Shown here in pieces: positions 30,466-49,291 of a stretch of 64,000 bases of DNA. The notes under the pieces were generated by a model. That model ran no database searches and had not been told where the DNA came from. It worked only from the letters and a program-made list of their open reading frames with translations. The position numbers and the translations under genes are program-made. The stretch lies in the NCBI GenBank assembly GCA_021816695.1, contig JAKAXE010000002.1, positions 28,914 through 92,913 on the forward strand, given 5' to 3'. This DNA is from a bacterium (GTDB lineage: Bacteria > Chloroflexota > Dormibacteria > Aeolococcales > Bog-877). Positions within the stretch are counted from its first letter, which is position 1; every line of letters starts with the position of its first letter.

Positions 30466-30471
30466 AGGGCC

Positions 30472-31992: not shown

Positions 31993-32328
31993 ATGAGCGA
32001 CGAGAATCCCACCCCCAAGGAGATCATGGAGCGCATTCCCTCTGCGTTCAAGCCGGAAAAGGCCGCCGGGGTGACCGCAGTTTTCCAATGGGAGGTGGGC
32101 GGCGAACAAGGGGGGCACTGGTTCGTGACCGTCAAGGACTCAGCCTGCCACGTGGCAGAGGGCCAGGCCGAGGCTCCCAACATCACCCTCACCATCGCCG
32201 ACGAAAACTTCGTGAAGCTTCTCACCGGCAAGCTGGACGGCACGGTGGCCTTCATGACCGGGAAGCTCAAGGTCAAGGGCGACATGGGGCTGGCCATGAG
32301 GCTGCCCCAACTATTCAACCTTCGCTGA
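31993..32328 (+). CDS. SCP-2 sterol-carrier-like domain protein
   Basis: Start trimmed to ATG 31993 behind SD AGGAGG. ...FVKLLTGKLDGTVAFMTGKLKVKGDMGLAMRL is the classic SCP2 C-terminal motif. Confidence 0.8.
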   Translation: MSDENPTPKEIMERIPSAFKPEKAAGVTAVFQWEVGGEQGGHWFVTVKDSACHVAEGQAEAPNITLTIADENFVKLLTGKLDGTVAFMTGKLKVKGDMGLAMRLPQLFNLR

Positions 32329-35300
32329 GGGGAGGCGAGCGGCGACGGGCCACTCCGCCGCGCTCCGGGCAGAACCACTGGTAGGGGCACTCGCCGCAGG
32401 GCAGCGGCGAGTGCCCCACCGCTGAGAGGGTCTCCGGCTCTGCCGCCCTGCGCGCCAGAGCAACCGCCCAGCTGAGCGCATCGTCGCGGGCCGCCGCAGA
32501 CGAGTCCACCTCCACCGTCTCCCCCGTGCGCAACAGGACCAGGGTCGGCGGAGCCACCCGATGGCTTCCGAGGAGGCCCCGTCCCACCGCCATCGAGTAG
32601 AGGAGGAGCTGGCGGCTGTGCCGCTCCAGAGAGGCGGTGGTCAGCATGCGATCCGTCTTGTAGTCCAGCACCAAGGCCTCACCACGGTCCGTCAGCGCCA
32701 CCCGGTCGATCGCTCCGACCAGGTCGGGAAGCCCCACCGTGCCCCAGCCGCTCCATTTGAACTTCACCTCCACCCCCAGGGTGGGCAGGGCAGCGATCGG
32801 AAGTGTGGCGTAGGCCTCCAGCATCGCGTCCAGATCCTCCGAGCTCACCCCAGAGCTGCTTGCGATCTGGGCCAACTCCCCGGGCCGGGGTCCGCGAGCC
32901 GGATGGCGCCGGTGGAAGCTCTCCAGGACTCGGTGGGCGGCACTTCCCATCTTCCGGGCCACGCTGGCGTCCGCCTCCGCCGGCCCTCCGACTCTGAACT
33001 GGGCCACCTGCTCAAACCAGTACCACCTGGGGCAGAGTTCCAGAGTCTCCAGCGCGCTGAAGCTGACCTCGGGCCGCGGGCGCTGCCCGTGATCCCAGCC
33101 ATCCTCCTCCAGCTGCTCCACCTGCCGCCACCTCACCAGCGCCGCTTGCAGGTCCGAGGGCTGTCGCCCAGGGACCGGTGCGCGGGCGATGCTCGGGGAA
33201 GAAACCCAGGGCAGGGTGACCTCCTCGGGGAAGCCCGGCAGAGGCCCCACCCAAGGAGCGCGCGCTGCCAGTGCGGCGACCAACTCGCCGAATTCTCCCC
33301 CGCCTCTCGCCCCATTCCAGACCTCTTCGAGCAACTCGCCCACGGTGGCTCCCTTGCTCCCCCGCCAAGCCCGGGTCGTGGTCACGACCAGCAGGTCTCT
33401 GGCCCTCGTCATCCCCACGTAGATCAGCCGGGTGCGCTCCTCCCGGTCCACCCGCGCCGCCCTCGTGGACGCCCAACGCGCCTTGGCAGCCGTGTCAACA
33501 CCTCCGGCGCGGGTGACCACCACGGCCCTCGCCTCCTCATCCCATAGCACCGGTCCGGAGCGGCTCTGGGAATGGAACGGGCGGCAGTCAGCCAGCACCA
33601 CCACTGGCCACTCCAACCCCTTGGCCCCATGGATGGTGCTGATCGTAACCTGATCGCCCTCCGCAGGCGCGGGCTCCCGGCGACCTCCGCGCTCCCCCAG
33701 ACCGGCGATCCTGGCCACCAGCTCACGGGCGGGCACGAACCGCCCCCCGCGTTCGGCCTCCAGGGCCACGCGATTGAGTGCTTCCAGAGAGGCGAGGGCG
33801 CGTGAACCGTCAGCTTCCCCAAGGCGGCGACGGGCGTCATGATAGGCCCGCAAACCAGACCGTTCCACTAGCAGGGACAAGACTTCGCTGCCGGAGCGGA
33901 GCTCCGCCGCGGCCGCCCCCGCGGCCAGCAATTCAATGGCCGAATGCGCGCGGCGCCGCACCGGACGGCTCACGGACGCCGTGGCCAGGCCGCGGCGGAC
34001 CAGGTCGGGCACCGGCTCACCCCCCGCCTGCGGGCGGCCCATAATCAGGGCCAGCTCCTGGTCGGGGACGCGGAATAGCGGTCCCTGGAGGACGCGCACC
34101 CAGGCCTGACCGTCGAGGGGATTGACCGCCGCCCGCAGCAGCGCCACGGCGTCCTTCACCGCCGGTCGCTCCAGCAGCCCACCGGTTGCCGCGGCGAACG
34201 GTATGCCTCGTGCCCTCAGGGCCTCCTCCAGGTAAGGCCCAATTCGGCTCAGGGTACGGGCGAGGATGGCGACGTCCTGATAGCGCACGTCCTGCTGGCT
34301 GCCGTCCGGATGGACGAGCCCCTCATCGTGGAGCTTGCTGATCAGATCGGCGATCCCCTCCGCCTCTAGTTGTGGATGAGTGGCCGTCCCGAGGAGGACG
34401 GGGTGGCCATCGGGCGCTGTCCTCCCCACCTCCATCGGGCGGTCGTCCGAGAACTGCGGCTCGGTACGCAGCACCGCCTCGGCGGCGGACAGGATGGAAG
34501 CCAGGGATCGGTAGTTGCGGGCGAGGGGATACAGGCGGCCGGGATGATCCTCCATGACCCCTGGCTGGGCATCCCGGAAGGCGTAGATCGACTGCCTGGG
34601 GTCGCCCACGACGTAGCTGCGCTCCTGGTTGCGGCCCCAAAGCTCAGCCAGCAGCCCCACCTGAAGAGGGCTGGTGTCCTGATACTCATCCACGATCACC
34701 AGACGAAAGTTCTGCTGTGTCCAGGCCCTTAGGGACGGTGCCGAACGCAGCGCCTGGAGGGCAGTCCTAAGAAGGCCGTCGAAGTCAGTGGCGTTGAGGG
34801 CCTCGAGGCGCTTCTCGTACTCGAGCCAGACCTCCAGGGTGAGTCGGAGGCCGAGTCGGTGGACGGCCACCTCGGACTCCGAGTCGGAAGCGAACGGAGG
34901 CGCGCCATACGCCCTGGTGGAGAGCCGCAGGCAATCGTCAGGGCTGAGCGGTGTCGAGCGAAGCCGCCTGACCGCCTCCTCGGCGGATCTGGCGATGGGG
35001 ACCAGGTCCCTGCCATTCACCAGGGGGGGCAGGGGGCCGAGCTCACCGTTGGCCAACCTCCCGCGCACCACCTGGCCGGCCTCCTGCAGCAGCTGGTAGG
35101 CCTCGATCTCGTCCAGCTGCTCGAGCTCCGGGCCAACCCGGGCGTCATACCAGTGCTCAGCCAGGAGGCGATACATAAGCTGATGGAAGGTGCCGATCCA
35201 GGCGGAGTCGAGATCGGGCGGCGAGGGGAAGGTGGCGACCGTCCGGGCCACCCTCTCCCGCAGCTCGGCGGCGCCTTTCTTGGTGAAGGTCACGGCCAGG

Positions 35301-35479
35301 ATCTGGCCCGGAGTCATCCCGTCCAACAGGCCGGCCGCGTACAAGGCCGCCATGGTCCGGGTCTTGCCACTGCCAGCGGCAGCGACCACCTTCACCGGTC
35401 CGTGATGGAGCTGGGACACAACCTCGCGCTGCGCCGGACTGAGGTCCCGCAGGATGCCCTCCAAGATCTCCTGGCTCAC
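32315..35479 (-). CDS. adnB: UvrD/PcrA-like helicase fused to C-terminal RecB-family nuclease (AdnB/AddA-type subunit)
   Basis: Walker A AAAGSGKTRTM, motif VDEYQDTSP, a later TIHGAKGLEW, a C-terminal PD-(D/E)XK block (LVLDYKT) and a terminal cysteine group (C...CGECPYQWFC). 1054 aa. Confidence 0.8.
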   Translation of the reverse strand: MSQEILEGILRDLSPAQREVVSQLHHGPVKVVAAAGSGKTRTMAALYAAGLLDGMTPGQILAVTFTKKGAAELRERVARTVATFPSPPDLDSAWIGTFHQLMYRLLAEHWYDARVGPELEQLDEIEAYQLLQEAGQVVRGRLANGELGPLPPLVNGRDLVPIARSAEEAVRRLRSTPLSPDDCLRLSTRAYGAPPFASDSESEVAVHRLGLRLTLEVWLEYEKRLEALNATDFDGLLRTALQALRSAPSLRAWTQQNFRLVIVDEYQDTSPLQVGLLAELWGRNQERSYVVGDPRQSIYAFRDAQPGVMEDHPGRLYPLARNYRSLASILSAAEAVLRTEPQFSDDRPMEVGRTAPDGHPVLLGTATHPQLEAEGIADLISKLHDEGLVHPDGSQQDVRYQDVAILARTLSRIGPYLEEALRARGIPFAAATGGLLERPAVKDAVALLRAAVNPLDGQAWVRVLQGPLFRVPDQELALIMGRPQAGGEPVPDLVRRGLATASVSRPVRRRAHSAIELLAAGAAAAELRSGSEVLSLLVERSGLRAYHDARRRLGEADGSRALASLEALNRVALEAERGGRFVPARELVARIAGLGERGGRREPAPAEGDQVTISTIHGAKGLEWPVVVLADCRPFHSQSRSGPVLWDEEARAVVVTRAGGVDTAAKARWASTRAARVDREERTRLIYVGMTRARDLLVVTTTRAWRGSKGATVGELLEEVWNGARGGGEFGELVAALAARAPWVGPLPGFPEEVTLPWVSSPSIARAPVPGRQPSDLQAALVRWRQVEQLEEDGWDHGQRPRPEVSFSALETLELCPRWYWFEQVAQFRVGGPAEADASVARKMGSAAHRVLESFHRRHPARGPRPGELAQIASSSGVSSEDLDAMLEAYATLPIAALPTLGVEVKFKWSGWGTVGLPDLVGAIDRVALTDRGEALVLDYKTDRMLTTASLERHSRQLLLYSMAVGRGLLGSHRVAPPTLVLLRTGETVEVDSSAAARDDALSWAVALARRAAEPETLSAVGHSPLPCGECPYQWFCPERGGVARRRSPPLSEG

Positions 35480-38400
35480 TCGGGCAACCCGGGTCCCGAA
35501 CCGACGCTTCCCTCACCATCGCAGCAGGTCGAAAAGGGGCATCCGCGTTCGCCGAGACAGGTCCCCGCATCGTGCCGCGGAGCGGCAGGGAAGACACCCC
35601 TTTGGATCGCTCGCGCCTCGTGATCCAGCCGCACTTCAAATTGGCGGCGGAGTTCCGGCGTGAGCAGCGCATCGGTCCAGGCAACCTCCTCCGATTCCTC
35701 GCCCACGGCGAATCCGCGCACGGCGAGCCCCGTCTTGAACCTGGCGCTCGGCTCGATTGCGAGGTACCAGTTCCGGACGAAGCGAGGTCGGACGCCCTGG
35801 GCGGCCGGATCCAGAGCCCCCGAACTGGCTGCCAGCTCGTAGATGGGGAGCTGCCAGTCGACCGCCGGCTTGCCATCGGCGCCGGAGATGGAGCTGGCCA
35901 GGACATCCCTGCTGGGTGCTTGCGGGGAGGTCTTGTAGTCAACCAACTCCAGGTCACCGGAGGGACGCCGCCAAAGCGCATCCACCCGACCGGTGAGGTC
36001 GTACCCCTGCCGCGGAAGGCTGAAAGGGACCTCCACCGCTACCGGGCTACCCACCTGCTCCGGCCCCGGAGCCACGATGCGATCCGCCCAACGAGACAAG
36101 ATGACGCGCAGCGAGAGGTCCACGGAGGCCTCGGCCAGGGGGTCGCAGAGGTAATCACGGACATCTGGCATCAGCTGCTCCCGGATCAGCTTCTGGCCTT
36201 GGGCCCGGAATTGATCGGGGTCCCCCGCCCACACGGCTGGGTTCTCGTAGAGGAGCTGCAGAAGTCGGTGCGCCATGCTACCCAGGACCGACGGCGCCGT
36301 GCCCTGCTCGAGGAGGTGAAGTCGGTGATAGTGGTACTGGCGGGGGCAGGCGAGCCAGCTCTTCATGCTGGTGGCGCTGAGCCGGACCTGTTCTGAAACC
36401 AACCCGGGCACCGTCGGGTCCCACGGCTGCAGAAGGTCGGCCTGATCACGAACCTCCTCCGGGAGAGCTTGCCCCACCTCGCCCCCGGCTCCCTGCGAGA
36501 TGGACGCCAGCTGGGCCAGGCAGTCCGCCCGGGTGACATTCCTAGCTGATGGCGCCGGGCCGGCCGTCACCCCCAGACCCTCCAGGGCGGCGGCGAACCG
36601 AGAATCGCCCACCTCGTCCTCACCGTACCGAGCGGCCCAGGTGACGGTCAGCTGGACGTCAGCACGGGAGATCCCCATCAGGAACCTTCGGCGCTCCTGG
36701 GCTCCCCAGTCCCCCGGTGCCAGCACCTCCTCCATCTCGGGCACGAACTCCGCGAGGCGCTGCCTGTCCTCCCCGGTCAGCAGATCGTGGGTAGGACCGG
36801 GACCGGGCAGGTACCGATCAGCGACCCCAACCAGGAACACCCGTTGCCAGCGGCGCCCCTTGGCCTGGCCCAACGTCACCACGGTCACCTCGGGTCGGTC
36901 TGGCCTGGGGACCCGATCCACCTCCCACCCCGACCGCCGCGCCGCCAGCTGCAGGATGTGCGCCCACTCCCGCAGTTGGGCCGGCCCCAGCGCCAACAGC
37001 TCGCGAGCATTCCCGGCATCCTGGACCGAGAGGTTGATGCGGGCCAGCGCGGAGGCGGAGGAGAACTCCCGCAGCGCGAGGTCGGAGACTCCGAGCTCCA
37101 CCTCCAGGGTGCCGAGCAAGCCCTGGAACTCCGGTGGAGTGAAGCGTTTGTCTGCGAGCCCGGGGTCGCCGCCACCGAGCTGAAGCCACAGCGCTCGGCG
37201 CAGCCCCAGGGCACCCTCGGTCGATCCGACTTCGGCGCTCCGGAGCGCACCGGCCACGCTGGTGCGCCTCCTCGCCGCCCACCGCCGAAGGCGCAGGATC
37301 TCAGCCTCGCCCACCCCCCCCGGATCAGCCTGCAGCGCCAAAAGAACCCGCCGGTCGTCGGTGGGATGGCAGAGGGCCTCGAGCCAGGCCGAGAGTTGGC
37401 TGAGAACGGGACTGCCGGACCATGGGCTCATCTCCAACCGCACCGGGACCCCAATGGAGCGGAGCGACTGCACCAGCGAAGGGAGGAGAACCGCTCCGCC
37501 AGCCGAGACCACGGCGACCTGGTCATACGGCACTCCCTCCTCCAGCCGCAGCCGACGGACCTCTCGGGCGACGGCGTAGGCCTCCTCGGTCTCGTCCTCG
37601 GCCCGCCAGATCCGGAGCGATGCGGCCGGGGTCGAGGCGGCCCTCGCTGGGGGGACCAGATTGTCCGCGGGGACGCCCCACCTCATCGCCAGTTCGACAA
37701 CCGGGCCGTTCCCCGGCAGCACGAGTTCTTGGGGGCGCATCTCTCGGGGGAAGAGCTCCTCAAAGCAGCGCACCGAAGGTCCATGACGCTCGCCGCCGGC
37801 CACCGTGCCGTCACCTGCCACCACGAAGCGACGCGGTGGGGCGAGCAGGTCAGCCAGTTCACGGAGCAGGTACCACTGGGCCGGGCTGAGCTGCTCGGCC
37901 TGATCAACCACCAGTAGGTCGGCCCACCCCGCCCACTCATTTGAGTGTGCTTGCAGGCAGGCGAGGGCAGCTCCGGCCAGCTGCTTGGTGTCCATCGCCC
38001 CCATTTGGTCAAGCGCCAGCTGGTAGTTGGCGGCCAACACGGTTACCTGGGCGAGAATGCCGTCGCTGCTGCGGAGCCGCGAGGCGAGAAGCGCCGGGGA
38101 CACCAGGGCCTGGCTGAAGCTGCCACAGAGGTCCAGGAGGCCATCTACGAACCCCGGGACGTCGGCCAGCTCTCCTAGCTCCCCCAGGACCGGGCGGGAA
38201 TGTTCCACCGCCGCACGCATGGCGATCCACTCCGCCACCGGTCCGAGGACCTGGCGGGTCTCGGCCACCGAGCGTTCCATGACCCAGCGGGCCAGCCGCT
38301 CGTGGGTCATCACCAACGGCGGACGGCTCGTCCCACGACCCCCACCGTCCAGCTGGCGGGCGAAGTCCCGCACGGCCGCCCGGCTCGGGAGCACCACGAT

Positions 38401-38544
38401 CACTCGCGATGGGTCCGCCCCTCTCTCCAGATCCCGAGCAACCAGCTCGACCAGTGCCCTTGTCTTCCCGGAACCCGGGCCCCCGCTGAGACGCGTCGGC
38501 CCGACCGGCTCCAGGAGCCCCGGACCACTCGGAAAGGCGGTCAA
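35476..38544 (-). CDS. adnA: Helicase-nuclease partner subunit (AdnA/AddB-type: UvrD-like motor + RecB-family nuclease)
   Basis: TTG start overlapping the TetR stop. Walker A GGPGSGKTRAL, a C-terminal nuclease block (LELVDYKTS) and a terminal cysteine group (CLGERGCPFSTCC). 1022 aa. Its 4-nt overlap with the downstream subunit suggests a heterodimer. Confidence 0.75.
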   Translation of the reverse strand: MTAFPSGPGLLEPVGPTRLSGGPGSGKTRALVELVARDLERGADPSRVIVVLPSRAAVRDFARQLDGGGRGTSRPPLVMTHERLARWVMERSVAETRQVLGPVAEWIAMRAAVEHSRPVLGELGELADVPGFVDGLLDLCGSFSQALVSPALLASRLRSSDGILAQVTVLAANYQLALDQMGAMDTKQLAGAALACLQAHSNEWAGWADLLVVDQAEQLSPAQWYLLRELADLLAPPRRFVVAGDGTVAGGERHGPSVRCFEELFPREMRPQELVLPGNGPVVELAMRWGVPADNLVPPARAASTPAASLRIWRAEDETEEAYAVAREVRRLRLEEGVPYDQVAVVSAGGAVLLPSLVQSLRSIGVPVRLEMSPWSGSPVLSQLSAWLEALCHPTDDRRVLLALQADPGGVGEAEILRLRRWAARRRTSVAGALRSAEVGSTEGALGLRRALWLQLGGGDPGLADKRFTPPEFQGLLGTLEVELGVSDLALREFSSASALARINLSVQDAGNARELLALGPAQLREWAHILQLAARRSGWEVDRVPRPDRPEVTVVTLGQAKGRRWQRVFLVGVADRYLPGPGPTHDLLTGEDRQRLAEFVPEMEEVLAPGDWGAQERRRFLMGISRADVQLTVTWAARYGEDEVGDSRFAAALEGLGVTAGPAPSARNVTRADCLAQLASISQGAGGEVGQALPEEVRDQADLLQPWDPTVPGLVSEQVRLSATSMKSWLACPRQYHYHRLHLLEQGTAPSVLGSMAHRLLQLLYENPAVWAGDPDQFRAQGQKLIREQLMPDVRDYLCDPLAEASVDLSLRVILSRWADRIVAPGPEQVGSPVAVEVPFSLPRQGYDLTGRVDALWRRPSGDLELVDYKTSPQAPSRDVLASSISGADGKPAVDWQLPIYELAASSGALDPAAQGVRPRFVRNWYLAIEPSARFKTGLAVRGFAVGEESEEVAWTDALLTPELRRQFEVRLDHEARAIQRGVFPAAPRHDAGTCLGERGCPFSTCCDGEGSVGSGPGLPE

Positions 38545-41051: not shown

Positions 41052-41471
41052 TCAGAGCGTCTGGACCGCGGCGGCTTCCGAACAGGCGATCACGTACTCG
41101 CCGACGCCCACGATGTCGTCAACGAGGTCGCTGAAGTCGGACAGCTGTTCCGCGCCCCAGATCTTGCCGGCGGTGGCACAGGCGTGGATGTGCAGGTCGC
41201 CCTGCGCCTTCAGGTTGCGCAGCTGAGCCATGGGGAGCGGGATCTGGTGCTTGGCAATCCCCGCTTCCATCTCGGCCCGGAGTTCCGGGTGGTCGTAGGT
41301 GGGGCTCTCACTGGAGGCCACGTCCCGGCGGAAGGCTCGGGCCCCGCCCAGAAGAAGGTACAGGTCAACGCGCTGGTCCAGAGCCACCGCTCCTCCGATC
41401 ACGGTGGAGGCCACCAGCAGCTTCTCCTCGCTGCCACTCGCCAGTCCGGCAACCATCTTGGCCATCTTCAT
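41052..41471 (-). CDS. DsrE/DsrF-like sulfur-relay family protein (second copy)
   Basis: 139 aa. DsrE-fold pattern with a conserved Cys in LHIHACATAGKIWG. Last gene of the hdr-like operon. Confidence 0.65.
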   Translation of the reverse strand: MKMAKMVAGLASGSEEKLLVASTVIGGAVALDQRVDLYLLLGGARAFRRDVASSESPTYDHPELRAEMEAGIAKHQIPLPMAQLRNLKAQGDLHIHACATAGKIWGAEQLSDFSDLVDDIVGVGEYVIACSEAAAVQTL

Positions 41472-41484
41472 CCCCCCAACACCA

Positions 41485-41961
41485 TCAGACGAACAAGTTC
41501 ACGCCGGCTTGGTCTGCCTCGGCCAGATAGCTGGCCACCCCGACGTACTCCAGACCATCCACCAGCTCATCCTCGGCGAGGCCGAGCACGTCCATGGACA
41601 TCTTGCAGGCGATCATCTTCACGCCCTGCTCGCGCGCGCTGGCCATCAGATCCTCCAGGGACATGACGTTCTGCTGGCGCATCACCCGGCGCATGAGGCG
41701 CGGCCCCACCCCCAGAAAGTTCATCTGCGAGAGCCGGAGCCGGGCGGTGCCCCGGGGCATCATGGCCCCGAACATGGCCTGGAGCAGCGCCTTGTGGTGG
41801 CGCGGCGCCGAGCTCTTGCGCAGAATGTTGAGCCCCCAGAAGGTGAAGAACATAGTCACCTCATCGCCCATGGCGGCGGCGCCGGTGGCGATGATGAAGG
41901 CGGCGATGGCCCGGTCCAGGTCGCCACTGAACACGATGAGCGTCTTCTTAGAGCTGTCCAT
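41485..41961 (-). CDS. DsrE/DsrF/DrsH-like (COG2210-type, DsrE3-like) sulfur-carrier protein
   Basis: TLIVFSGDLDRAIAAFIIATGAAAMGDEVTMFFTFWGL and the Cys block VKMIACKMSMDVLGL are typical of the DsrE3/peroxiredoxin-like subgroup found next to hdr-like genes. Confidence 0.7.
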   Translation of the reverse strand: MDSSKKTLIVFSGDLDRAIAAFIIATGAAAMGDEVTMFFTFWGLNILRKSSAPRHHKALLQAMFGAMMPRGTARLRLSQMNFLGVGPRLMRRVMRQQNVMSLEDLMASAREQGVKMIACKMSMDVLGLAEDELVDGLEYVGVASYLAEADQAGVNLFV

Positions 41962-42934
41962 CTGACTCTCCTTCCGGGCCCTCGCAGGCTCGCAACAGGT
42001 AGTCGGAGATGTCCTCGATCGCGATCGCGTCTTCGGCTGCCTTCTCCAGATTGACGAAGCACAGGGGGCACATGGTGACCGCTCGGCCCGCCACCGCCCG
42101 CAGCTCCCCGACCCGCCGGGCCGCCTGTTCCGCCGCCCGCCTCGGGAAGAGTGATTCGGCCGGTCCCCCGCAGCACCAGGTCATGGTGCCGCTGTGGGCC
42201 GGCTCGCGCACCGTGAGCCCGGCTTGGTCCAGTAGCCGGCGGGGGGCGTCCACCACCCCCTCGTAGCGGGCAAAGATGCACGAGTCGTGGATCGCCACCT
42301 CGCCCGCCAGTTTTCGAGTGGGACCGAAGCCCCGCTCCGCCAGCACCTCCAGGTAGCTGCGCACCTTGAGGTCGTAACCGGGGATCAGCCCCGGGTAGAC
42401 CGAGCGCAGCATGTTGGTGGTGTGGGGATCGATGGTGATGGCCTCCTTCACCCCGTACTGCTGGAACACGGCGTACACGGTGCGGGCATGGGCGGCCAGG
42501 ATCTCGTCCACCCCCATGTCGTAGATCAGCGCCCCGGAGTAGAGGTCCTCCTCGAACAGGGAACCGAAGTCGACGCCCGCGCGGCGCAACAGCAGGGCCA
42601 CGTTGTGGGGGATCCGGTCGTACACCGACCGCTCCGCAGAGCTGGGGTGGGCCATGAACCCGGCGAGGTTCAGGACCCGGTTCACCTGGCGGCCGAACCC
42701 GGTGAAGCCGGCCAGGAAGGAGTCACCCAGCCGCTCCTCGGCGGCAACCAGCTGCTCGATGTAGGGGATCAGCTGGTACATCTGACCGGTGTAGAGGACC
42801 GTGTCCCCGCCCCGACGCAGGTGCAGCCCCTCCGTCCAGCGGATGGCATTGGCGGCGGGGATGGGAAGTACCGACTTGCGCAGCCGCAGGTTGTCGGCCA
42901 GGATCGCGATGGTGTCGGAGGTGGCCAGTGGCAT
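41948..42934 (-). CDS. hdrB: HdrB-like CCG-domain iron-sulfur protein (single CCG motif)
   Basis: The C-terminal half carries C-x37-CC-x(~37)-C-x2-C (HDSC...TWCCGGP...MCPLC), the CCG-domain signature. The N-terminal ~230 aa has no cysteine, so only one non-cubane-cluster site seems to be present. Confidence 0.75.
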   Translation of the reverse strand: MPLATSDTIAILADNLRLRKSVLPIPAANAIRWTEGLHLRRGGDTVLYTGQMYQLIPYIEQLVAAEERLGDSFLAGFTGFGRQVNRVLNLAGFMAHPSSAERSVYDRIPHNVALLLRRAGVDFGSLFEEDLYSGALIYDMGVDEILAAHARTVYAVFQQYGVKEAITIDPHTTNMLRSVYPGLIPGYDLKVRSYLEVLAERGFGPTRKLAGEVAIHDSCIFARYEGVVDAPRRLLDQAGLTVREPAHSGTMTWCCGGPAESLFPRRAAEQAARRVGELRAVAGRAVTMCPLCFVNLEKAAEDAIAIEDISDYLLRACEGPEGESDGQL

Positions 42935-42937
42935 CCC

Positions 42938-43252
42938 TCACCTCCCCTCTAGATGGAAGACATTGCGGTCGAAGTAGTGCCGGAGCGCCCGCACGTTCTC
43001 AGTGATGTGGACCCCGGCCGGGCAGCTCACCTCACAGAGCTTGCAGAGCAGGCAGGAGAACACTTCCTCCTGGTGCTGGAGCACCTCCTCCTCCATCCCC
43101 AGGACCACGTAGGCGAACACCTCACGGGGAAGATGGCGCAGCCCGAGGGGGCAGATGGCAGTGCAGATGCCGCAGTTCATGCAGGCCGAGGGGTTGAAAG
43201 ATGGGTCCATCCCCACCCTCTCCGCCAGGTCAGGCTGGAGTGCGGCGGTCAT
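42938..43252 (-). CDS. hdrC: HdrC-like 2x[4Fe-4S] ferredoxin-type subunit
   Basis: Two cluster motifs, CMNCGICTAICP and CLLCKLCEVSCP. 104 aa, immediately upstream of hdrB. Confidence 0.75.
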   Translation of the reverse strand: MTAALQPDLAERVGMDPSFNPSACMNCGICTAICPLGLRHLPREVFAYVVLGMEEEVLQHQEEVFSCLLCKLCEVSCPAGVHITENVRALRHYFDRNVFHLEGR

Positions 43253-43497
43253 GGCGTAAGCCGCTCCAGCGCCCGGTAGTGGAAGAGCCCTTCATCGTCG
43301 GCCTCGGAACTCTCGGCGAGGTAGCCGTACTTGCGCATCCCCATCACCCAGTACATGACCTCGTGGGTGGGGCAGCCGATCAGGCCGGCGATCTCGGGCA
43401 CGGTGCGTGGCCCATCAGCCACGGCCTTCAGGATCTCACGTCGCCGAAGCGGCTCCTCCCGGATCACCTCGCGCAGGTCGCGGCTCTCAACGACCAT
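43249..43497 (-). CDS. Small (82 aa) winged-helix-like protein embedded in the hdr-like operon
   Basis: The pattern RREILKAVADGPRTVPEIAGLIGCPTHEVMYWVMGMRKYGYL resembles an ArsR/MarR-like wHTH (helix-turn-helix plus wing). It overlaps hdrC by 4 nt and starts 1 nt after the hdrA stop. Confidence 0.55.
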   Translation of the reverse strand: MVVESRDLREVIREEPLRRREILKAVADGPRTVPEIAGLIGCPTHEVMYWVMGMRKYGYLAESSEADDEGLFHYRALERLTP

Positions 43498-43498
43498 C

Positions 43499-45229
43499 TC
43501 AGGCGACCCCCGCGGCCAAGCTCTCGATCATCGCCTCGACCTCCCTGCCGGTGTATCCCAGGACGTTGATGGCGTGCTCCGGGCAGAGCGGGGCACAGCC
43601 GCCGCAGCCCTTGCAGGTCGCGGGGTCGATGACCGCCACCTGGCGGCCCCCACCCAGCTCCTGCTGCCCGATGGCGCCGTACGGGCAGGCCTCGGTGCAG
43701 GCCCCACAGAAGGTGCAGAGGTCCGGGTCCACGGTTGCCACCTGCGGATCCAGCTCGGCCCTCCCCTGCTTCAGCATGGCGGCGCTCCAGGAGACCGCCG
43801 CCAGCCCGGAGGCCACGCTCTCCCCCGCCGTCTTGGGGAACTGGCATGCGCCGCAGATGGCCACCCCGTCCACCACCGTCTCCACCGGTCGGAGCTTGGG
43901 ATGGATCTCGTTGAAGAACCCGTCTCTGCCCACGGGCAGCTTGAGCCTTTGGATCAGCTCCTGGTTCGAGCGGGGCACCATCCCGGTCACCAGGACCACC
44001 AGGTCCACGTCCAGGGTGACCTCCTCCTGGCTGGTGAGCTGGTCATGGACCCTTACCTCCAGCTGACCATCCCCACGGCGCTGGACCTCAGGCGGGGTGT
44101 CGGGCGCGAACTTCAGGTAGGCGGATCCCTTCTCCCGGGAATCGTTGTAGAGGAGCTCGTAGCGTCCGTAGGTGCGCATGTCCCGGTAGAGGTGGTACTG
44201 GTGGGCCTTGGGGGACTTGGCCCGGAGCTCCAGGTCGGTGTGCACCGCCGAGGTGCAGCAGAAGCGGGAGCAGTACTGGTGCGGCCCGCCCTCTCCCTGG
44301 CGGCTCCCGACGCAGTAGATGTAGGCGACAGAGCGGACCGGGCGGTCCCCGTAGACCAGCGGACCCTCGCTGGCGTCCACCAGCTTCTTGAACTCCGGGA
44401 GGGTCAGGACACCGGGGATGCCGTACCCGTACTCCCCCTCCTCCGGGAGATAGCTGTCGAACCCCGTGGCGACGATGATCGAGCCCACCTCGAAGCGGCG
44501 GGTCATGTTGGAGTCGCCGCGGGTCCGGATGTCCACCTCGTAATTCCCGAAGGTGCCGCCCTTGCGAACCAGCTCAGCGTTGGTAAAGAGCGCGATCCCC
44601 TCCCGGCGCCGGACCTCACCCAGGAGCTCCGAGATCAACTCCTGCCCCTGGCGGTCATGCGGATACATGGTCCCCAGCTCTCGCACGTGGCCCCCCACCT
44701 CCGCCTCGCGCTCGATGAGGATCACCCCAAGGCCGATGTCCGCCAGACCGATCGCGGCGCGCAGCCCCGCGATCCCGGCGCCGATGACCAGCGCCCGAGG
44801 AACGGTCTCCACCACGGTCGGGTCGAGCGGCTCGAGCAGACGGGTTCGGGCGATCCCGGCTCGAACCAGCCGAATCGCCTTCTCGGTGGCTCCCAGGCGG
44901 TCGTCGGTGTGGGCCCAGGAGTCCTGCTCCCGCAGGTTCACCTGCGTGTAGCGGTAGGGGTTGAGGCCAGCGCGCCGGGCCACTCCGCGAAAGGTGAAGG
45001 TGTGGAGCTTGGGGGAGCAGGAGGCGACCACCAGGCCGTCCAGGTCGTCGAGCTTGATGTCGTCGACAATCTCCTCCTGGGTGGCGTCGGAGCAGGTGAA
45101 CATCGCGGTTCGGGCCACCACCACGTCGGGGTCTTCGGCCACGGCCTGGCGAACCCGCTCGACGTCCACGTAGTCGGAGATGTTGCCGCCGCACTGGCAG
45201 ACGTAGACGCCGATCTTGCGCTCGCTCAT
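43499..45229 (-). CDS. hdrA: HdrA-like FAD/FeS oxidoreductase (heterodisulfide reductase subunit A family)
   Basis: KIGVYVCQCGGNISDYVD...ASCSPKLH...NPYRYTQVNLREQDSWAH block, FAD motif ALVIGAGIAGLRAA, HdrA motif YCSRFCC, and a C-terminal 2x[4Fe-4S] (CTFCGACTEACP, CKGCGGCAPLCP). Confidence 0.8.
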   Translation of the reverse strand: MSERKIGVYVCQCGGNISDYVDVERVRQAVAEDPDVVVARTAMFTCSDATQEEIVDDIKLDDLDGLVVASCSPKLHTFTFRGVARRAGLNPYRYTQVNLREQDSWAHTDDRLGATEKAIRLVRAGIARTRLLEPLDPTVVETVPRALVIGAGIAGLRAAIGLADIGLGVILIEREAEVGGHVRELGTMYPHDRQGQELISELLGEVRRREGIALFTNAELVRKGGTFGNYEVDIRTRGDSNMTRRFEVGSIIVATGFDSYLPEEGEYGYGIPGVLTLPEFKKLVDASEGPLVYGDRPVRSVAYIYCVGSRQGEGGPHQYCSRFCCTSAVHTDLELRAKSPKAHQYHLYRDMRTYGRYELLYNDSREKGSAYLKFAPDTPPEVQRRGDGQLEVRVHDQLTSQEEVTLDVDLVVLVTGMVPRSNQELIQRLKLPVGRDGFFNEIHPKLRPVETVVDGVAICGACQFPKTAGESVASGLAAVSWSAAMLKQGRAELDPQVATVDPDLCTFCGACTEACPYGAIGQQELGGGRQVAVIDPATCKGCGGCAPLCPEHAINVLGYTGREVEAMIESLAAGVA

Positions 45230-47925
45230 GACCTCACCCTCAGGGCCTCCACGTGGGCCGCGGCCTGGGCCACGGCCGCCCCGGCGTGGAGGATCGACTC
45301 GGGGATGTCCTTGGCCCCGGAAGCCGCGCCGGCGACGAACACACCCTCGATGCTGGTCTGCCCGGGGTTGAGGTCCTCGTCCACCTCCTCCACGTAGTAG
45401 TAGGGGTCGTGCTGGAGCTCGCCGGCACCGAACAGCTGGCGGGTGTCCAGGTTGGGCTGCACACCCACAGCCAGGACCACCAGGTCGAACTCGGCCTCCC
45501 GGATCTCGCCACCGTGCTCTATGTCCTCGTAGCGAAGGACGAGGTCGCCGTTGTCCAGCTCTCGGATCTCGGCGATCCGGCCCTTGATGAAGGTGGTTCC
45601 CATCGCCTCGGCCTGGACGTAGAACTCGTCATACCCCTTGCCGGCGGTGCGCACGTCGATGGTGAAGACGGTGACGTCAGCCAGGGGCAGGGCGCCCATG
45701 ATGAGCTGGTTCTGCTTGATCGAGTACATGCAGCAGATCCGGGAGCAGAGCGGGTTGCCCACGGTCTGGTCCCGCGACCCGGTGCACATCACGTAGGCGA
45801 TCCGCTCGGGGACCTTTCCATCCCCCGGCCTGAGCACGGTGTTGAAGGGCCGGGTCGGAGCCAGCAGCCGGTCCATCTGCATCCCGGTGATGACATTCTT
45901 GAAGCGACCGAACCCGTACTGGGGCTTGAGGTCCGCCGGGAACAGCTTGAAGCCGGTGGATACCACCACCGCCGCCACCTCGGTCTCCACCTTCTCCGGT
46001 CGCATGTCCAGATGGATGGCGTCCGCGGGGCACACGTTCACGCACTCGTGGCACTCGGAGCACACCCCGCAGTCCAGGCAGCGTCCGGCGCTGTAGTGCA
46101 CCTCGGCCTCACTCAGGGGAGCCTCGATCTCGTGGAAGTCGCGGGGATCCAGGACCAGCTCCTTGCCCGACCCCAAGGCATCCTTCCGGCTGTGTGTCTT
46201 CTGCCGCCGCAGCACATCCTGGGCCTCGACCCGGGGCAGAAGCAGATTGAACTCCTCCGGGTCAAACGCCTGGGAGTTGAGGAAGTGGTCGATCATGTGG
46301 GCGGCCCGGCGGCCCTGGCCGACCGCGGTCGTGATCATGGTGGCGCCGTCAACCACGTCCCCGCAGGCGAAGATCTTGGGGACCCGAGACTGCAGCGTGC
46401 CCGGATCAACCGCCAGAGTCCCGTTTCCCCGCCGGTCGAGCAGGGGGGCGAAGGATTCGGTGTCGGGCCCCATCCCGATCGCTACCACCACTAGGTCGCA
46501 GGCGATGCTCTGGCGCGCGCTCTCGTCATAAGTGGGATGGAAGCGGCCCAGGGCGTCGAATACCGCGGTGCAGCGCTTTAACTCGATTCCCTCCACCCGG
46601 TCTTGGCCTTGGACCCTGGCGATGCCCCAGCCATCCTCCAGCTGGACCCCCTCGGCCAGAGCCTCGTCAACCTCCCAGTCGAAGGCCGGCATCTCCGAAC
46701 GGCCCTCCAGGCACACCTCGGTCACGGCGAGGGCCCCCAGCCGGCGGGCCGAGCGGGCCGCGTCGATGGCGACGTTGCCACCGCCCACGACCACCACCCG
46801 CTTACCACTCACGTCCATGCCCCGGCCCAGCTTGCTGGTCTCGAGGAAGTCCAGGGAGGGCACCACCTGGGGAAGCTCCTCGCCCTCCACCCCGAGGCGC
46901 CCAGACCGCGGTGTCCCGGTCGCCACCAGCACAGCGTCAAAGCCCCGATCGGAAAGCTCACCCAGATCGGTCACCCGGTGATTGAGCTCGATCTCAACCC
47001 CGATCGCGGTGACGTTGCCCACGTCCTCCGCTACCACCTCGCTCGGTAGCCGGTAGTTCGGGATGGTGAGGCCGAGGGCCCCTCCAGCCACCGGCCCCGC
47101 CTCGTAGATCTTCACCTCGTGTCCCAGCAGGCGCAGCTGCCAGGCCGCGGTGAGGCCGGCCGGTCCGGAGCCCACGATCGCCACCCGCTTCCCGGTCGTC
47201 GACCCGGGCTCGACTCCCAGGGGGAGCTCGGACTGGTAGTGGGTGTCGGCGACGAAGCGCTTGATCCGGCGGATCGGCACGGGTCCCTCAAGCGATCCGC
47301 GCGAGCAGCCGTCCTCACAGGGCGCGAAGCAGGCCCGCCCGAGGCTACCCACCAGGGGAGTGCTCTCCAGGACCAGGTTGAACGCCTTCTCGTACTCGCC
47401 ACTCCGCGCCAGGGAGACGTACCCATGGGCCTTGATGCCGGCCGGGCAATCGAAGGTGCAGGGCGACGTGCCCGGCCTTTCGATGACCGCCTTCTTGGGC
47501 ACGGCCTGGGGGAAGGGGATGTACGCGGCCCGCCTGGACACCAGGTCGGCGTTGAACTGGTCGGGTACGGCCACCGTGCAGGCCTGCTCACATAGCTGGC
47601 AGCCGGTGCAGGCGGCCTCGTCGACGAACCGTGGGTTCTGGCGGATCGACACCGAGAAAGTGCCGTCTTGGCGGCGCTGGATCCTCTCCACCTCCGCGTA
47701 GGTGCGGACGGTGATGTTGGGATGGTGGATGGTCGCCGCCATCTTGGGCGTGGAGATGCAGCTGGCGCAGTCCAGGGTGGGGAACACCTTGCTGAGGAGG
47801 ATCATCTTCCCCCCCACCGAGGCCTCCTTCTCGACCACCAGGACCCGATAGCCCATGTCCCCGAGCTTGAGGGCGGACTCCATCCCCCCGATTCCGCTTC
47901 CAATCACCAGGACGTCGTAGTCCAT
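45226..47925 (-). CDS. Large HdrA paralogue interrupted by a GltD/NfnB-like NAD(P)H-binding module (HdrL-like)
   Basis: Start trimmed to ATG comp(47923-47925): MDYDVLVIGSGIGGMESA (HdrA FAD site). aa ~155-550 have GltD-type motifs: CPAGIKAHGY, CFAPCEDGC, KRVAIVGSGPAGLTAA, KRVVVVGGGNVAIDAA, ACGDVV...AVGQGRRAA. Then come a ferredoxin motif CLDCGVCSECHECVNVCP and the HdrA C-half (CTGSRD...LCSRICC). Confidence 0.8.
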   Translation of the reverse strand: MDYDVLVIGSGIGGMESALKLGDMGYRVLVVEKEASVGGKMILLSKVFPTLDCASCISTPKMAATIHHPNITVRTYAEVERIQRRQDGTFSVSIRQNPRFVDEAACTGCQLCEQACTVAVPDQFNADLVSRRAAYIPFPQAVPKKAVIERPGTSPCTFDCPAGIKAHGYVSLARSGEYEKAFNLVLESTPLVGSLGRACFAPCEDGCSRGSLEGPVPIRRIKRFVADTHYQSELPLGVEPGSTTGKRVAIVGSGPAGLTAAWQLRLLGHEVKIYEAGPVAGGALGLTIPNYRLPSEVVAEDVGNVTAIGVEIELNHRVTDLGELSDRGFDAVLVATGTPRSGRLGVEGEELPQVVPSLDFLETSKLGRGMDVSGKRVVVVGGGNVAIDAARSARRLGALAVTEVCLEGRSEMPAFDWEVDEALAEGVQLEDGWGIARVQGQDRVEGIELKRCTAVFDALGRFHPTYDESARQSIACDLVVVAIGMGPDTESFAPLLDRRGNGTLAVDPGTLQSRVPKIFACGDVVDGATMITTAVGQGRRAAHMIDHFLNSQAFDPEEFNLLLPRVEAQDVLRRQKTHSRKDALGSGKELVLDPRDFHEIEAPLSEAEVHYSAGRCLDCGVCSECHECVNVCPADAIHLDMRPEKVETEVAAVVVSTGFKLFPADLKPQYGFGRFKNVITGMQMDRLLAPTRPFNTVLRPGDGKVPERIAYVMCTGSRDQTVGNPLCSRICCMYSIKQNQLIMGALPLADVTVFTIDVRTAGKGYDEFYVQAEAMGTTFIKGRIAEIRELDNGDLVLRYEDIEHGGEIREAEFDLVVLAVGVQPNLDTRQLFGAGELQHDPYYYVEEVDEDLNPGQTSIEGVFVAGAASGAKDIPESILHAGAAVAQAAAHVEALRVRS

Positions 47926-47927
47926 GG

Positions 47928-48371
47928 CTATGCCACCCCGACCGGGCCTAGCTCCAGCAGCTGGGCTTCGAACTCGTGCATGTACTTCACGAAGGGCTCG
48001 GCGCAGACCGAGCAGATGGCCGCCATCTTGAGGCGCTCCGGGGCGTACCCCTTCTCCGCCATCATCGCCTGCGCCCTCTCGAAAACCTTGGCCGACCGCT
48101 CCGAGCAGTCGGTGAGGTAGCTGCACTCCTCGCCGTCGGAGGCGATGAAGACCCCATCGAACCCCTGGTCGAAGGCGTGGGCGATCCACTCCGGGGCGAT
48201 CCCGCTGCTGCAGGGAACCGCGATCGTCATGGCCCGGGGGGAGTAGTGCAGATGCGAGCTGCCCGCCAGGTCGATCCCCGGATCCGAGATGTTATTGGTG
48301 GAGAACACCAGGATCTTGGGGCTGAAGGTGGTTCCCGCCGTGGGCGCCGGCGGCGCCATGGTGGTTGCCAT
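47928..48371 (-). CDS. mvhD: MvhD/FlpD-like (methyl-viologen-reducing hydrogenase delta subunit family) protein, cysteine pattern divergent
   Basis: KILVFSTNNISDPGIDLAG...IAVPCSSGI...GFDGVFIASDGEECSY aligns by eye with the MvhD blocks (C-C-N-W-C-S-Y, M-C-x-G-R, G-A-D-G-V, G-C-x-x-G-D-C-H-Y). Several canonical Cys are replaced. Confidence 0.7.
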   Translation of the reverse strand: MATTMAPPAPTAGTTFSPKILVFSTNNISDPGIDLAGSSHLHYSPRAMTIAVPCSSGIAPEWIAHAFDQGFDGVFIASDGEECSYLTDCSERSAKVFERAQAMMAEKGYAPERLKMAAICSVCAEPFVKYMHEFEAQLLELGPVGVA

Positions 48372-48377
48372 GGCCGG

Positions 48378-48635
48378 TTACTTCATCCTCCTCACGAAGC
48401 ACTTGAAGTAGCCCTGCTCGTCCACTACCCCAAGGAACTCGTGTCCCATCTTGGCCGCCCAGGCCGGAAGGTCCTTCTTGGTTCCGGAGTCGGTGGAGAG
48501 CACCGCCATCACATCGCCGACCTTGACCTCGACTATTCCCTTCTTGGCCGCCAGGATGGGACCGGGGCAGGAGGTTCCCCGGGCATCGACCGTCTTCTGG
48601 GCCTCCAACGCCGTCAGCTGCTCGACTGCCATCAT
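48378..48635 (-). CDS. tusA: TusA/SirA-family sulfur-carrier protein
   Basis: 85 aa. VDARGTSCPGPILAAKK matches the TusA D-x-R-G-x-x-C-P-x-P active-site motif. SD GAGGAGG upstream. First gene of the operon. Confidence 0.85.
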   Translation of the reverse strand: MMAVEQLTALEAQKTVDARGTSCPGPILAAKKGIVEVKVGDVMAVLSTDSGTKKDLPAWAAKMGHEFLGVVDEQGYFKCFVRRMK

Positions 48636-48810
48636 GGGTCACCTCCTCGGCGCTTCGGCGCCGGTCTCTTGATCGGGTGATCCCAGCGTAGGTTCGGCCT
48701 CAGCACGCACTACAGCAGGGAATCACCCAGTACCCCCCGGGGTTCACGCCCGCCCGCCCTCAGGTGGAGGAGGGCAGCGCCGGAGAGGGAGCGGGCGCTA
48801 CAGTCTTGGC

Positions 48811-49266
48811 GTGGACACTGAACCCAGCTTCATGGCCGCACATCTCCTGGATTGCCTCGGGACGGCCATGACTGCCGGCCCCAGCGAGGAACTCGCCCCC
48901 TACCGGGCAGGTGCCGCAAAGCTCGGCTCCGACGAGCGGGCTGAGTGGCACCGCGCCTTCGTGTGCGCCCGCTGGGCGGTTGAGGTCGCCTCGCAACCGG
49001 AGCACGGCCACCTGGCCCACATCCTGTCCACCTCGCGCGAGGCTGTCCGACTATTCGGCGACGCCGTGGCCACGGAGGCCGGGCGCCTTGTACCTGAGGC
49101 GGGCTGGCGTGTGTCCGCCCCGTTCGCTGCGGAGATCGCCTGGGTGGATGAGGCGTGCCGGCTGGCCGGCGAGGTGGCTCGCGAGCGTGGCTGGGGGGCC
49201 GTCCCGTGGCGCCGCCTGCTGGAGTCAGTCCTGGCGGTGCCGGACCCGGGGCCCCAGCCCGCCTGA
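48811..49266 (+). CDS. Hypothetical protein
   Basis: 151-aa ORF (GTG start; ATG at 48832 is an alternative), divergent from tusA. Composition looks coding. No family recognised. Confidence 0.4.
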   Translation: MDTEPSFMAAHLLDCLGTAMTAGPSEELAPYRAGAAKLGSDERAEWHRAFVCARWAVEVASQPEHGHLAHILSTSREAVRLFGDAVATEAGRLVPEAGWRVSAPFAAEIAWVDEACRLAGEVARERGWGAVPWRRLLESVLAVPDPGPQPA

Positions 49267-49291
49267 CGGTCGGGCTGGGGAACCCGGCCGG

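Follow-up and report, generated by a model that had tools for sequence, protein, structure and literature searches.

A nine-gene HdrABC/HdrL-type operon with TusA and DsrE2 from a Dormibacteria genome: a candidate complex for carrier-bound sulfane sulfur

What does a heterodisulfide reductase (Hdr)-like complex act on when its genes are interleaved with those of sulfur carriers? The question is raised by a 64,000-nucleotide stretch of contig JAKAXE010000002.1 (assembly GCA_021816695.1, positions 28,914 to 92,913; hereafter the window), from a bacterium of the Dormibacteria lineage Bog-877, whose minus strand carries nine consecutive open reading frames (ORFs) at 41052-48635, in the order tusA-mvhD-hdrL-hdrA-wH-hdrC-hdrB-dsrE2-orf9 (wH, winged helix). 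The substrates of bacterial HdrABC-like complexes are largely unknown, with DsrC only proposed; here, two candidate substrates, TusA and DsrE2, share the operon of the complex. Our preferred reading, with a probability of about 0.5, is a soluble iron–sulfur flavoprotein complex with dedicated TusA/DsrE2 carriers, linked to NAD(P)H and handling carrier-bound sulfane sulfur.

A conserved nine-gene operon

The nine genes are an operon, its architecture confirmed as follows:

48378..48635, minus strand: tusA, 85-aa sulfur carrier with Cys23 in S-C-P-G-P; first gene
47928..48371, minus strand: mvhD, 147-aa MvhD/FlpD-type [2Fe-2S] electron connector
45226..47925, minus strand: hdrL, 899-aa HdrA-type thioredoxin-reductase-like flavoprotein with a GltD/NfnB-type insert
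43499..45229, minus strand: hdrA, 576-aa HdrA with an N-terminal 4-Cys motif, FAD, a C-x13-C-x3-CC cluster and a C-terminal 2x[4Fe-4S] ferredoxin
43249..43497, minus strand: wH, 82-aa bare winged-helix protein between hdrA and hdrC
42938..43252, minus strand: hdrC, 104-aa short HdrC-like ferredoxin with two CxxCxxCxxxCP motifs
41948..42934, minus strand: hdrB-like gene, 328 aa, with one complete CCG motif (C219, C254-C255-G, C289-P-x-x-C292)
41485..41961, minus strand: dsrE2, 158-aa soluble DsrE2-family sulfur-transferase-like protein with Cys119
41052..41471, minus strand: orf9, 139-aa divergent DsrE2B-like paralogue with Cys98 in H-x-C-x-T-A-G-K

The coordinates give junctions with gaps of 6, 2, 1, 3 and 13 nt and overlaps of 4, 4 and 14 nt, in agreement with the close same-strand packing (gaps of 1-13 nt, overlaps of 4-14 nt) described in an earlier note on this DNA, which was made from the sequence alone. 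The nine gene identities given there hold, eight of them by Pfam and orf9 by profile and fold comparison, as does the prediction of soluble proteins, with no credible transmembrane segment in 9/9. Third-position GC of 0.81-0.93 in 9/9 frames is the coding signature of the genome, G+C being ~69% across the whole window, and a GAGGAGG ahead of tusA reads as a ribosome-binding site.

A locus census covering one genome per species (Genome Taxonomy Database) and using two signature peptides recovered at least 372 loci, mostly in uncultured lineages of soil, peat and hot springs. Neighbourhood counts below refer to the best 80 of these 372 and colinearity counts to the 58 of the 80 with enough flank; a conserved neighbour is an ORF cluster common to six or more of the 80 loci, and cysteine conservation comes from alignments of 16-81 orthologues per protein. 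The block tusA-mvhD-hdrL-hdrA-wH-hdrC is colinear 5' of hdrB in 57/58 loci. An adjacent DsrE-family gene is present in 54/58 (52 of DsrE2 type, 2 with orf9 only); DsrE2 lies directly 3' in 36/58, and in 16/58 a DsrE-family gene is found 5' of tusA instead. The earlier note had described two 3' DsrE proteins; both are DsrE2-type in the window, but orf9 occurs in only 11/58 loci and is an accessory gene of a minority of relatives. Every candidate ligand and carrier cysteine is 94-100% conserved, and the active-site cysteine motifs and single CCG motif, previously read as retained, are kept at 100%.

The best 80 loci comprise 49 Actinomycetota (Thermoleophilia, Gaiellales, Acidimicrobiia and others), 20 Bacillota, 4 Dormibacterota and 3 Chloroflexota; the nearest to the window (L001 and L004) are 95-98% identical, and an exact-sequence search with the window HdrB matched no record. 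Cultured, genome-sequenced carriers exist: six Bacillota loci are from cultured Desulfotomaculia (Desulfallas, D. copahuensis, Desulfoscipio geothermicus, two Desulfotruncus and Desulfofundulus), and Desulfoscipio gibsoniae (CP003273.1, at roughly 810.0-817.6 kb) has 8/9 genes at 53-68% identity. Flanking genes differ from genome to genome and are unrelated housekeeping genes; the flanks in cultured Desulfotomaculia hold no shared partner (cytochrome bd, a Na+/H+ exchanger, a methyl-accepting chemotaxis protein, enoyl-CoA hydratase). Since the core is colinear in four or more phyla while its flanks are unrelated, the module is self-contained.

That the genes lie together by chance or through an assembly artefact has a negligible probability. 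The only point in its favour is that no promoter or terminator was identified, whereas all frames carry the coding signature and the same order and spacing recur across independent assemblies and cultured genomes. The synteny census (57/58 loci, four or more phyla), a comparison with relatives that the earlier note had put forward as decisive, refutes chance juxtaposition.

Some loci are rearranged. One (L017) carries extra inverted TusA-, MvhD- and orf9-like matches 3' of hdrB, and in another (L079) the best mvhD, hdrL, hdrA and wH matches are inverted, 3' of hdrB. A Dormibacteria locus (L073) has an orphan hdrB-like gene without the other operon genes.

HdrL and HdrA as complementary paralogues

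HdrL starts at the ATG at 47925; the open frame continues upstream into mvhD, and orthologues start at the same MDYDVLVIGSG. The protein matches Pfam Pyr_redox_2 (1e-43) and Fer4_20, an NCBIfam HdrA-type model (1e-131) and GltD/NfnB-type models (1e-137, PRK12771). Its residues 2-150 align with methanogen HdrA 143-290 and residues 617-890 with 289-563, flanking an insert of ~465 residues (~150-616) of GltD/NfnB type with Fer4_20 clusters, FAD and NAD(P)H sites. This alignment places the GltD/NfnB module between the two cluster motifs of the inserted ferredoxin domain of HdrA. The insert matches NfnB/GltD over ~400 residues and has the Fer4_20 cluster, FAD and NAD(P)H motifs; unlike NfnAB, in which NfnB is the flavin/NADPH module (PMC5861303), there is no NfnA partner and the module sits within an HdrA-type protein. 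HdrL lacks both the N-terminal domain and the C-terminal ferredoxin domain of HdrA. It has three conserved dinucleotide-binding motifs (HdrA-type FAD, GltD-type FAD and NAD(P)H), and its cysteine ligands are 97-100% kept (C53/C56, C106-116, C156/160/199/203/207, C616-632 and C714/727/731/732).

HdrA matches Pfam Fer4 and FAD families and the NCBIfam HdrA2 model (3e-137), and is far closer to methanogen HdrA (1e-114) than to sHdrA (6tjr, 2e-30). Residues 1-236 align with methanogen HdrA 9-244 and 246-570 with 327-651, so the ~80-aa inserted ferredoxin domain is missing (the gap between methanogen residues 244 and 327). Conserved cysteines are C11/13/46/71, C306/320/324/325, C462 and those of two ferredoxin motifs. 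C462, invariant in 72/72, is part of AICGACQFPK, the C-terminal flavin-binding motif, whose counterpart in methanogen HdrA reads AGVAQGPKD; it is a lineage-specific cysteine beside the non-bifurcating flavin site. By sequence, HdrL and HdrA look like complementary halves of a canonical HdrA dimer, and by analogy they would form an asymmetric heterodimer.

A precedent is the class II benzoyl-CoA reductase BamB-I, which holds two HdrA-like units, one with a bifurcating FAD beside a Lys and a functional Cys-x-x-Cys, the second with a non-bifurcating flavin whose role is mainly structural rather than catalytic; the MvhD-type adaptor there contains a winged helix, and the inserted ferredoxin domain is the low-potential output (bioRxiv 10.64898/2026.04.10.717634). 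The hallmarks of bifurcation, a Lys at flavin N5 and a Cys-x-x-Cys, are present in HdrL, which retains the FPTxDCxxC motif and the lysine of CCMYxxK (K737 in 63/63 and C53/C56 in 61/63 orthologues; K737 takes the Lys409 position of 5odc by residue count along the alignment). They are absent from HdrA, which has His330 (67/72 orthologues) in place of the flavin-N5 Lys and CxxC or FPTxDCxxC in none. As Lys737 and the CxxC occur only in HdrL and HdrA has lost both, any bifurcating flavin would lie in HdrL, and bifurcation at HdrA, as the earlier note had suggested, is unlikely. The NAD(P)H module that the note assigned to one HdrA-family protein is confirmed, but its position in the inserted ferredoxin domain puts it on an output-type branch, judging by the Bam structure, and not on the MvhD input branch. 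The wiring of the HdrL module would on sequence grounds differ from that in Flx-Hdr. No operon gene encodes a partner for the branch through MvhD and the HdrA C-terminal domain, which implies a third redox partner, plausibly ferredoxin.

MvhD (PF02662, 1e-28) keeps Cys 54, 83, 89, 120 and 123 in 63/63 orthologues. HdrC matches Fer4_17 (2e-10) and, under its cutoff, the TIGR03290 HdrC model (2e-12), and all eight of its cysteines are invariant in 78/78. HdrB has a single Pfam CCG domain (residues 213-296, 4e-7); its five cysteines (C219, C254, C255, C289 and C292), all in the C-terminal half, are kept in 81/81 sequences, and the N-terminal half is conserved yet Cys-free in the same 81/81.

Sulfur carriers and the winged-helix protein

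TusA gives a full-length PF01206 match (3e-22, 78.6 bits against a cutoff of 28.6) and falls below the cutoff of the NCBIfam TusA equivalog (49.6 against 78); Cys23 is kept in 63/63 orthologues. DsrE2 matches PF13686 (DrsE_2; 3e-61, 206.6 bits) with Cys119 invariant in 61/61, and its 91.8 bits against the cutoff of 210 of the NCBIfam DsrE2 equivalog (NF047629) make it a member of the family, not an equivalog. The product of orf9 has no Pfam match. Aligned with the adjoining DsrE2 (hhalign, full length, 86% probability), it places Cys98 on Cys119; its AlphaFold2 (AF2) model (pLDDT 93.7) finds 2qs7 (SSO1126) as top Foldseek match (TM 0.88), and Cys98 is 100% kept in the orthologue alignment. The family counts only 65 clusters, few members of which reach PF13686, and bears the JGI name 'peroxiredoxin family protein'. 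We assign orf9, by profile and predicted fold, to the DsrE2B type.

That tusA occurs in 57/58 loci and DsrE-family genes in 54/58, their active-site cysteines being invariant, points to sulfur as the substrate. So do the regulators that adjoin the operon in relatives: an ArsR-type protein with three conserved Cys lies directly 5' of tusA in ~25 Actinomycetota loci, and this family includes documented sulfane-sulfur sensors, among them the repressors sHdrR and SoxR (PMC12423496, PMC10451225). A divergent CsoR-family protein lies by tusA in Desulfotomaculia, and 18 loci have an extra PF02635 DsrE. Beyond the operon genes, these three are the recurrent neighbours; the window is without the regulators. 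Assignment of the CsoR-family proteins as copper or persulfide sensors was tried and left aside, given their atypical C...C-H fingerprint.

Could the carriers bear selenium or another chalcogen, the complex being an NAD(P)H-dependent reductase of selenium metabolism? Several matches, all under cutoff, lean that way: TusA to the YedF selenium-metabolism models of NCBIfam, HdrL to YgfK, a 'putative selenate reductase subunit' (6e-74), and both HdrL (5e-42) and HdrB (1.5e-10) to NF045663, a GltD-plus-CCG fusion named for nearby Sec genes. These scores are far under the family cutoffs, though, TusA scores best against TusA proper, and selD, selA/B and yedE are found neither in the window nor among conserved neighbours; we regard a selenium role as very improbable.

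The wH protein has only weak Pfam matches (HTH_5/HTH_20). It occurs in 77/80 loci, always between hdrA and hdrC, and its family comprises 255 clusters. An invariant recognition helix (W-V-M-G-M-R-K/R-Y-G) is accompanied by no conserved Cys and no dimerisation helices; the AF2 model (pLDDT 89.6) retrieves in Foldseek only generic MarR/ArsR/TFE winged-helix domains (TM 0.6-0.69). The lack of a conserved Cys rules out sensing through thiols. Two roles are considered, minimal regulator and structural adaptor, of which a small adaptor subunit of the complex is the more probable.

Relation to described Hdr systems

The closest described relatives are the HdrABC/HdrL and MvhD clusters of sulfate reducers, such as Sfum_0819-0824 of Syntrophobacter fumaroxidans and Dred_1325-30 of Desulfotomaculum reducens, which are biochemically uncharacterised; the HdrABC/HdrL proteins are sulfate-specific or sulfate-induced in these two organisms, and bifurcation or confurcation has been proposed. 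The earlier note had found no match among known Hdr systems; those it listed do differ, as set out below, but these relatives were overlooked. They share with the window an HdrA paralogue with an NAD(P)H module, a second HdrA, MvhD, HdrC and HdrB, and the lack of a hydrogenase. Compared by description, the sulfate-reducer clusters have a formate dehydrogenase (Fdh)-like or FeS partner next to mvhD, and tusA, dsrE and wH are not described there; neither the window nor its relatives have an adjacent Fdh or FeS partner gene. The D. reducens order (hdrC-hdrB-hdrL-hdrA-mvhD-fdh) is also unlike that of the window, and the acceptor proposed there is DsrC. The MvhD-HdrL-HdrA-HdrCB core has thus already been noted in sulfate reducers, and the version with TusA, DsrE2, wH and a one-CCG HdrB is probably a new variant of HdrL-type complexes; we found no description of it in the open-access literature, the scope of our search.

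This kinship allows another reading, in which the operon encodes a Gram-positive/actinobacterial form of HdrABC/HdrL that reduces DsrC in sulfate or sulfite reduction, with TusA/DsrE2 feeding or recycling DsrC-bound sulfur. Sfum_0819-0824 was detected only with sulfate available, Dred_1325-30 is induced more than 20-fold by sulfate with DsrC reduction proposed for it, and seven cultured organisms with the cluster are sulfate reducers of the Desulfotomaculia. Most carriers, by contrast, are soil and peat metagenome-assembled genomes of Actinomycetota, Dormibacterota and Chloroflexota, groups that are not known as Dsr organisms. With dsrC and dsrAB also absent from the window and from conserved neighbours, and with the sulfate-reducer clusters differing in their partner beside mvhD and their lack of tusA/dsrE, a DsrC reductase is improbable.

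Methanogen MvhAGD-HdrABC (5odc, 8rvu) shares the HdrA fold and cluster motifs (E 1e-100 to 1e-114), an HdrC with two cubane-cluster motifs, the [2Fe-2S] MvhD connector and a CCG-type terminal subunit. It differs in that the window splits the HdrA domains over two polypeptides, with an NfnB/GltD insert in the ferredoxin-output domain, and has one CCG motif against two in HdrB, an HdrC of half length and no CoM/CoB context. Families of the [NiFe]-hydrogenase subunits MvhA and MvhG are absent from the ORFs scanned in the window and from conserved neighbours. The system is not methanogen Mvh-Hdr, because MvhAG is missing, HdrA is split and HdrB has one CCG. Nor is it Flx-Hdr, Qmo or MetFV-Hdr, because their partner genes are absent: flxABCD, qmoC/aprAB, metFV and etf occur nowhere in the whole window or among conserved neighbours. 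Apart from that of etf, these absences had been called correctly from the window by the earlier note, together with that of MvhAG and the lipoate genes, and they extend to the relatives.

The likeness to sHdr-LbpA goes further, an Hdr-like complex linked to TusA and DsrE-family carriers, with a small 'H' gene between hdrA and hdrC/B and ArsR-type regulators nearby. Type II sHdr also has a one-cluster HdrB variant, and the published orders are shdrC1B1AHC2B2 (type I) and shdrC1B1AHB3-etfAB-emo (type II) (PMC11094781). One might therefore read the operon as sHdr-like sulfur oxidation, in which sulfane sulfur delivered by TusA/DsrE is oxidised at the CCG site and electrons pass to NAD(P)+. Linkage to tusA and dsrE is almost constant in sHdr clusters, the A-H-C2-B2 order resembles hdrA-wH-hdrC-hdrB, sHdrB3 of type II holds just one non-cubane cluster (PMC11094781), and the NAD(P) module on an output-type branch would suit that direction. 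LbpA and lipoate-maturation genes, on the other hand, are described as inevitably associated with sHdr (PMC6067878), and no lbpA, lipoate ligase or maturation gene is found in the window or among clusters common to at least 6 of 80 loci. Further, Etf/EMO genes are lacking, there is one HdrCB pair against two, HdrA is of methanogen type (1e-114 against 2e-30 to sHdrA) and not the short sHdrA, and MvhD and HdrL are not sHdr components. Because it lacks LbpA, lipoate and Etf genes and has a methanogen-type HdrA and a single HdrCB pair, the system is not sHdr, and sulfur oxidation of that kind is quite improbable.

Bam, through its module BamDEF, resembles the window in its asymmetric HdrA-like pair with a Cys-x-x-Cys near the flavin, and its HdrBC-like subunit has an altered distal cluster. 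Unlike the window, Bam joins its HdrA units in a single polypeptide and takes in NADH via a HydBC-like module, and its outputs are a tungsten enzyme and electron-transfer flavoprotein (ETF), with no sulfur carriers.

A proposed mechanism

From the gene association we infer a function in carrier-bound sulfur chemistry; gene content, synteny, domain anatomy and conserved ligands are observed, and from them we also infer the assembly, substrate, direction, third partner and bifurcation set out here. The complex would consist of MvhD, HdrL, HdrA, HdrC and HdrB, with wH as a probable small adaptor, and its dedicated carriers would be TusA plus one or two proteins of DsrE2 type. HdrL and HdrA would pair asymmetrically to rebuild one canonical HdrA dimer. 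In the canonical enzyme electrons enter HdrA from MvhD and reach HdrB by way of HdrC, the ferredoxin site being on HdrA (PMC5861303). Here the FAD that is the candidate for bifurcation would be that of HdrL (Lys737, C53xxC56), which would also supply the 4-Cys cluster next to it and have its inserted ferredoxin clusters wired to the GltD/NfnB-type FAD/NAD(P)H module; HdrA would hold the non-bifurcating flavin site and contribute its N-terminal cluster and its C-terminal ferredoxin domain, the normal docking place of MvhD.

One branch would lead from the HdrL flavin via HdrC to the one-CCG HdrB and its single non-cubane [4Fe-4S] site, which most likely acts on sulfane sulfur, a protein disulfide or a trisulfide presented by Cys23 of TusA or Cys119 of DsrE2. 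Overall, persulfide on the carrier would be reduced to sulfide in an NAD(P)H-linked reaction, and we favour this reductive direction. A third partner, probably ferredoxin, would exchange electrons via MvhD and the HdrA C-terminal domain, giving a candidate three-way bifurcating or confurcating system. The role is probably intracellular sulfane sulfur handling, as homeostasis or detoxification or as a sulfur-dependent redox sink. A bolder proposal, held tentatively and at rather low odds, is that the asymmetric HdrL/HdrA enzyme couples NAD(P)(H) and ferredoxin to TusA/DsrE2-bound persulfide at the single non-cubane cluster, with wH structural, and so represents a new bifurcating/confurcating class, a 'protein persulfide reductase/oxidase'.

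With both TusA and DsrE2 encoded alongside the complex, the substrate question can be tested directly with defined proteins, and the HdrA dimer, naturally 'split' in HdrL/HdrA, lets one ask cleanly which elements bifurcation requires. If the complex handles sulfane sulfur, the at least 372 loci would mean that the sulfur cycle on land has a further, widespread step in the cytoplasm; if a bifurcating persulfide enzyme proves true, soil and peat Actinomycetota, Dormibacterota and Chloroflexota, together with Desulfotomaculia, would have an unrecognised cytoplasmic sulfur-linked energy or redox-balancing pathway.

Is sulfur the substrate of HdrB?

A number of observations weigh against the sulfur-handling complex preferred here, and most concern HdrB. 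A PDB search with the subunit yields no methanogen HdrB at E <= 1; its best PDB relative, 9ojn_A (7e-10), has CPHC where HdrB has an invariant D-P-H-T-T. HdrB has more than 1600 relatives in 90% clusters and 113 representative clusters at E <= 1e-30; full-length relatives at 30-40% identity form a wide one-CCG 'DPHT' family, which includes 400-430-aa HdrC-HdrB fusions encoded directly 3' of GlcD-like FAD-linked oxidase genes on hot-spring metagenome contigs (L091, L098, L099, L121 and L139, at about 6.5-9.2 kb in each). No HdrA, TusA, DsrE or wH was seen as a neighbour on these contigs, which suggests that the fusions are a GlcF-like Fe-S subunit family related to the window HdrCB. Since they adjoin GlcD-like oxidases, one-CCG modules also serve non-sulfur dehydrogenases, and a CCG domain alone is no proof of persulfide or disulfide chemistry. 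BamD, which is HdrBC-like, passes electrons to ETF, its disulfide site being occluded. Three of the 58 loci have no adjacent DsrE gene, the window has no regulator of its own, and the regulator families of relatives are only suggestive, that of CsoR type having its atypical fingerprint.

With the NAD(P)H module on the canonical low-potential output branch, 'NAD(P)H in, sulfide out' may be the wrong way round or incomplete; and because the persulfide/sulfide couple has a low potential, it is doubtful on energetic grounds that bifurcation from NAD(P)H could reduce ferredoxin.

These points bear on a further alternative, that the locus encodes a general bifurcating or confurcating module in which the one-CCG HdrCB only passes electrons to, or takes them from, a partner not concerned with sulfur (such as ETF, a 2-hydroxyacid-type dehydrogenase or a quinone-linked protein), with TusA/DsrE2 as accessories in, for example, cofactor or cluster maturation or persulfidation regulation. 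The GlcD-paired fusions free of sulfur genes, BamD and the missing match to methanogen HdrB speak for it. It is harder to reconcile with the frequency of tusA and DsrE-family genes and their invariant cysteines, difficult to explain for mere accessories; neither TusA nor DsrE2 is known as a usual part of general Fe-S maturation. Genes for ETF, quinone-linked proteins or dehydrogenases are likewise absent from conserved neighbours. We judge this alternative unlikely, and because one-CCG relatives and BamD act as electron-transfer subunits we keep the sulfur-substrate claim at moderate confidence.

Other ideas on HdrB were dropped. An internal duplication found no support (hhalign of the N-terminal against the CCG half, 0.8% probability), a degenerate first CCG domain being read from the 9ojn_A alignment alone. 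The fusions were at one stage taken for type II sHdrB3 with a wH-like 'H' neighbour; their neighbours are GlcD-like oxidases, with no HdrA, TusA or wH. A tblastn search of HdrB against plasmids returned only distant (Fe-S)-binding proteins covering <60% of the query.

Flanks of the operon and other genes of the window

An aldehyde dehydrogenase gene is convergent with the operon, just past orf9. At the other end, 656 bp 5' of tusA have no assignable gene, followed by pyruvate phosphate dikinase:

48636..49291, minus strand: 5' stretch, non-coding or unassigned; the sequence as read has no regulator gene, unlike relatives

The operon promoter must lie within 48636-49291. A promoter scan of the operon region found no sigma-70-like site, and a terminator scan gave a single terminator-like site, which lies outside the operon; chance alone would give more. 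The sole ORF 5' of tusA, at 48811-49266(+), has no Pfam match; an ArsR-type regulator query had no match in the window, nor did an Rfam scan of the window at gathering thresholds.

Elsewhere in the window, a CysRS-type protein at 62249-64000(+), running past the window edge, joins a tRNA-synt_1e catalytic domain (3e-87) to a family-2 glycosyltransferase domain and may be an MshC-like low-molecular-weight-thiol ligase fusion. A DnaE2-type polymerase gene (19189-22473(-)) lies ~6 kb from ImuB-like (IMS family) and RecA-fold ImuA'-like genes (28448-29995(-) and 29656-30579(-)); these are parts of the SOS 'mutasome', here separated by CHAD, MFS and FtsH genes. Two neighbouring proteins of 1054 and 1022 aa at 32315-38544(-), each a UvrD helicase with a PD-(D/E)XK nuclease, form an AdnAB/AddAB-type pair, which would fit a host of actinobacterial type, and at 10415-12085(-) a ThuA (trehalose utilisation) domain is joined to a GFO/IDH/MocA oxidoreductase.

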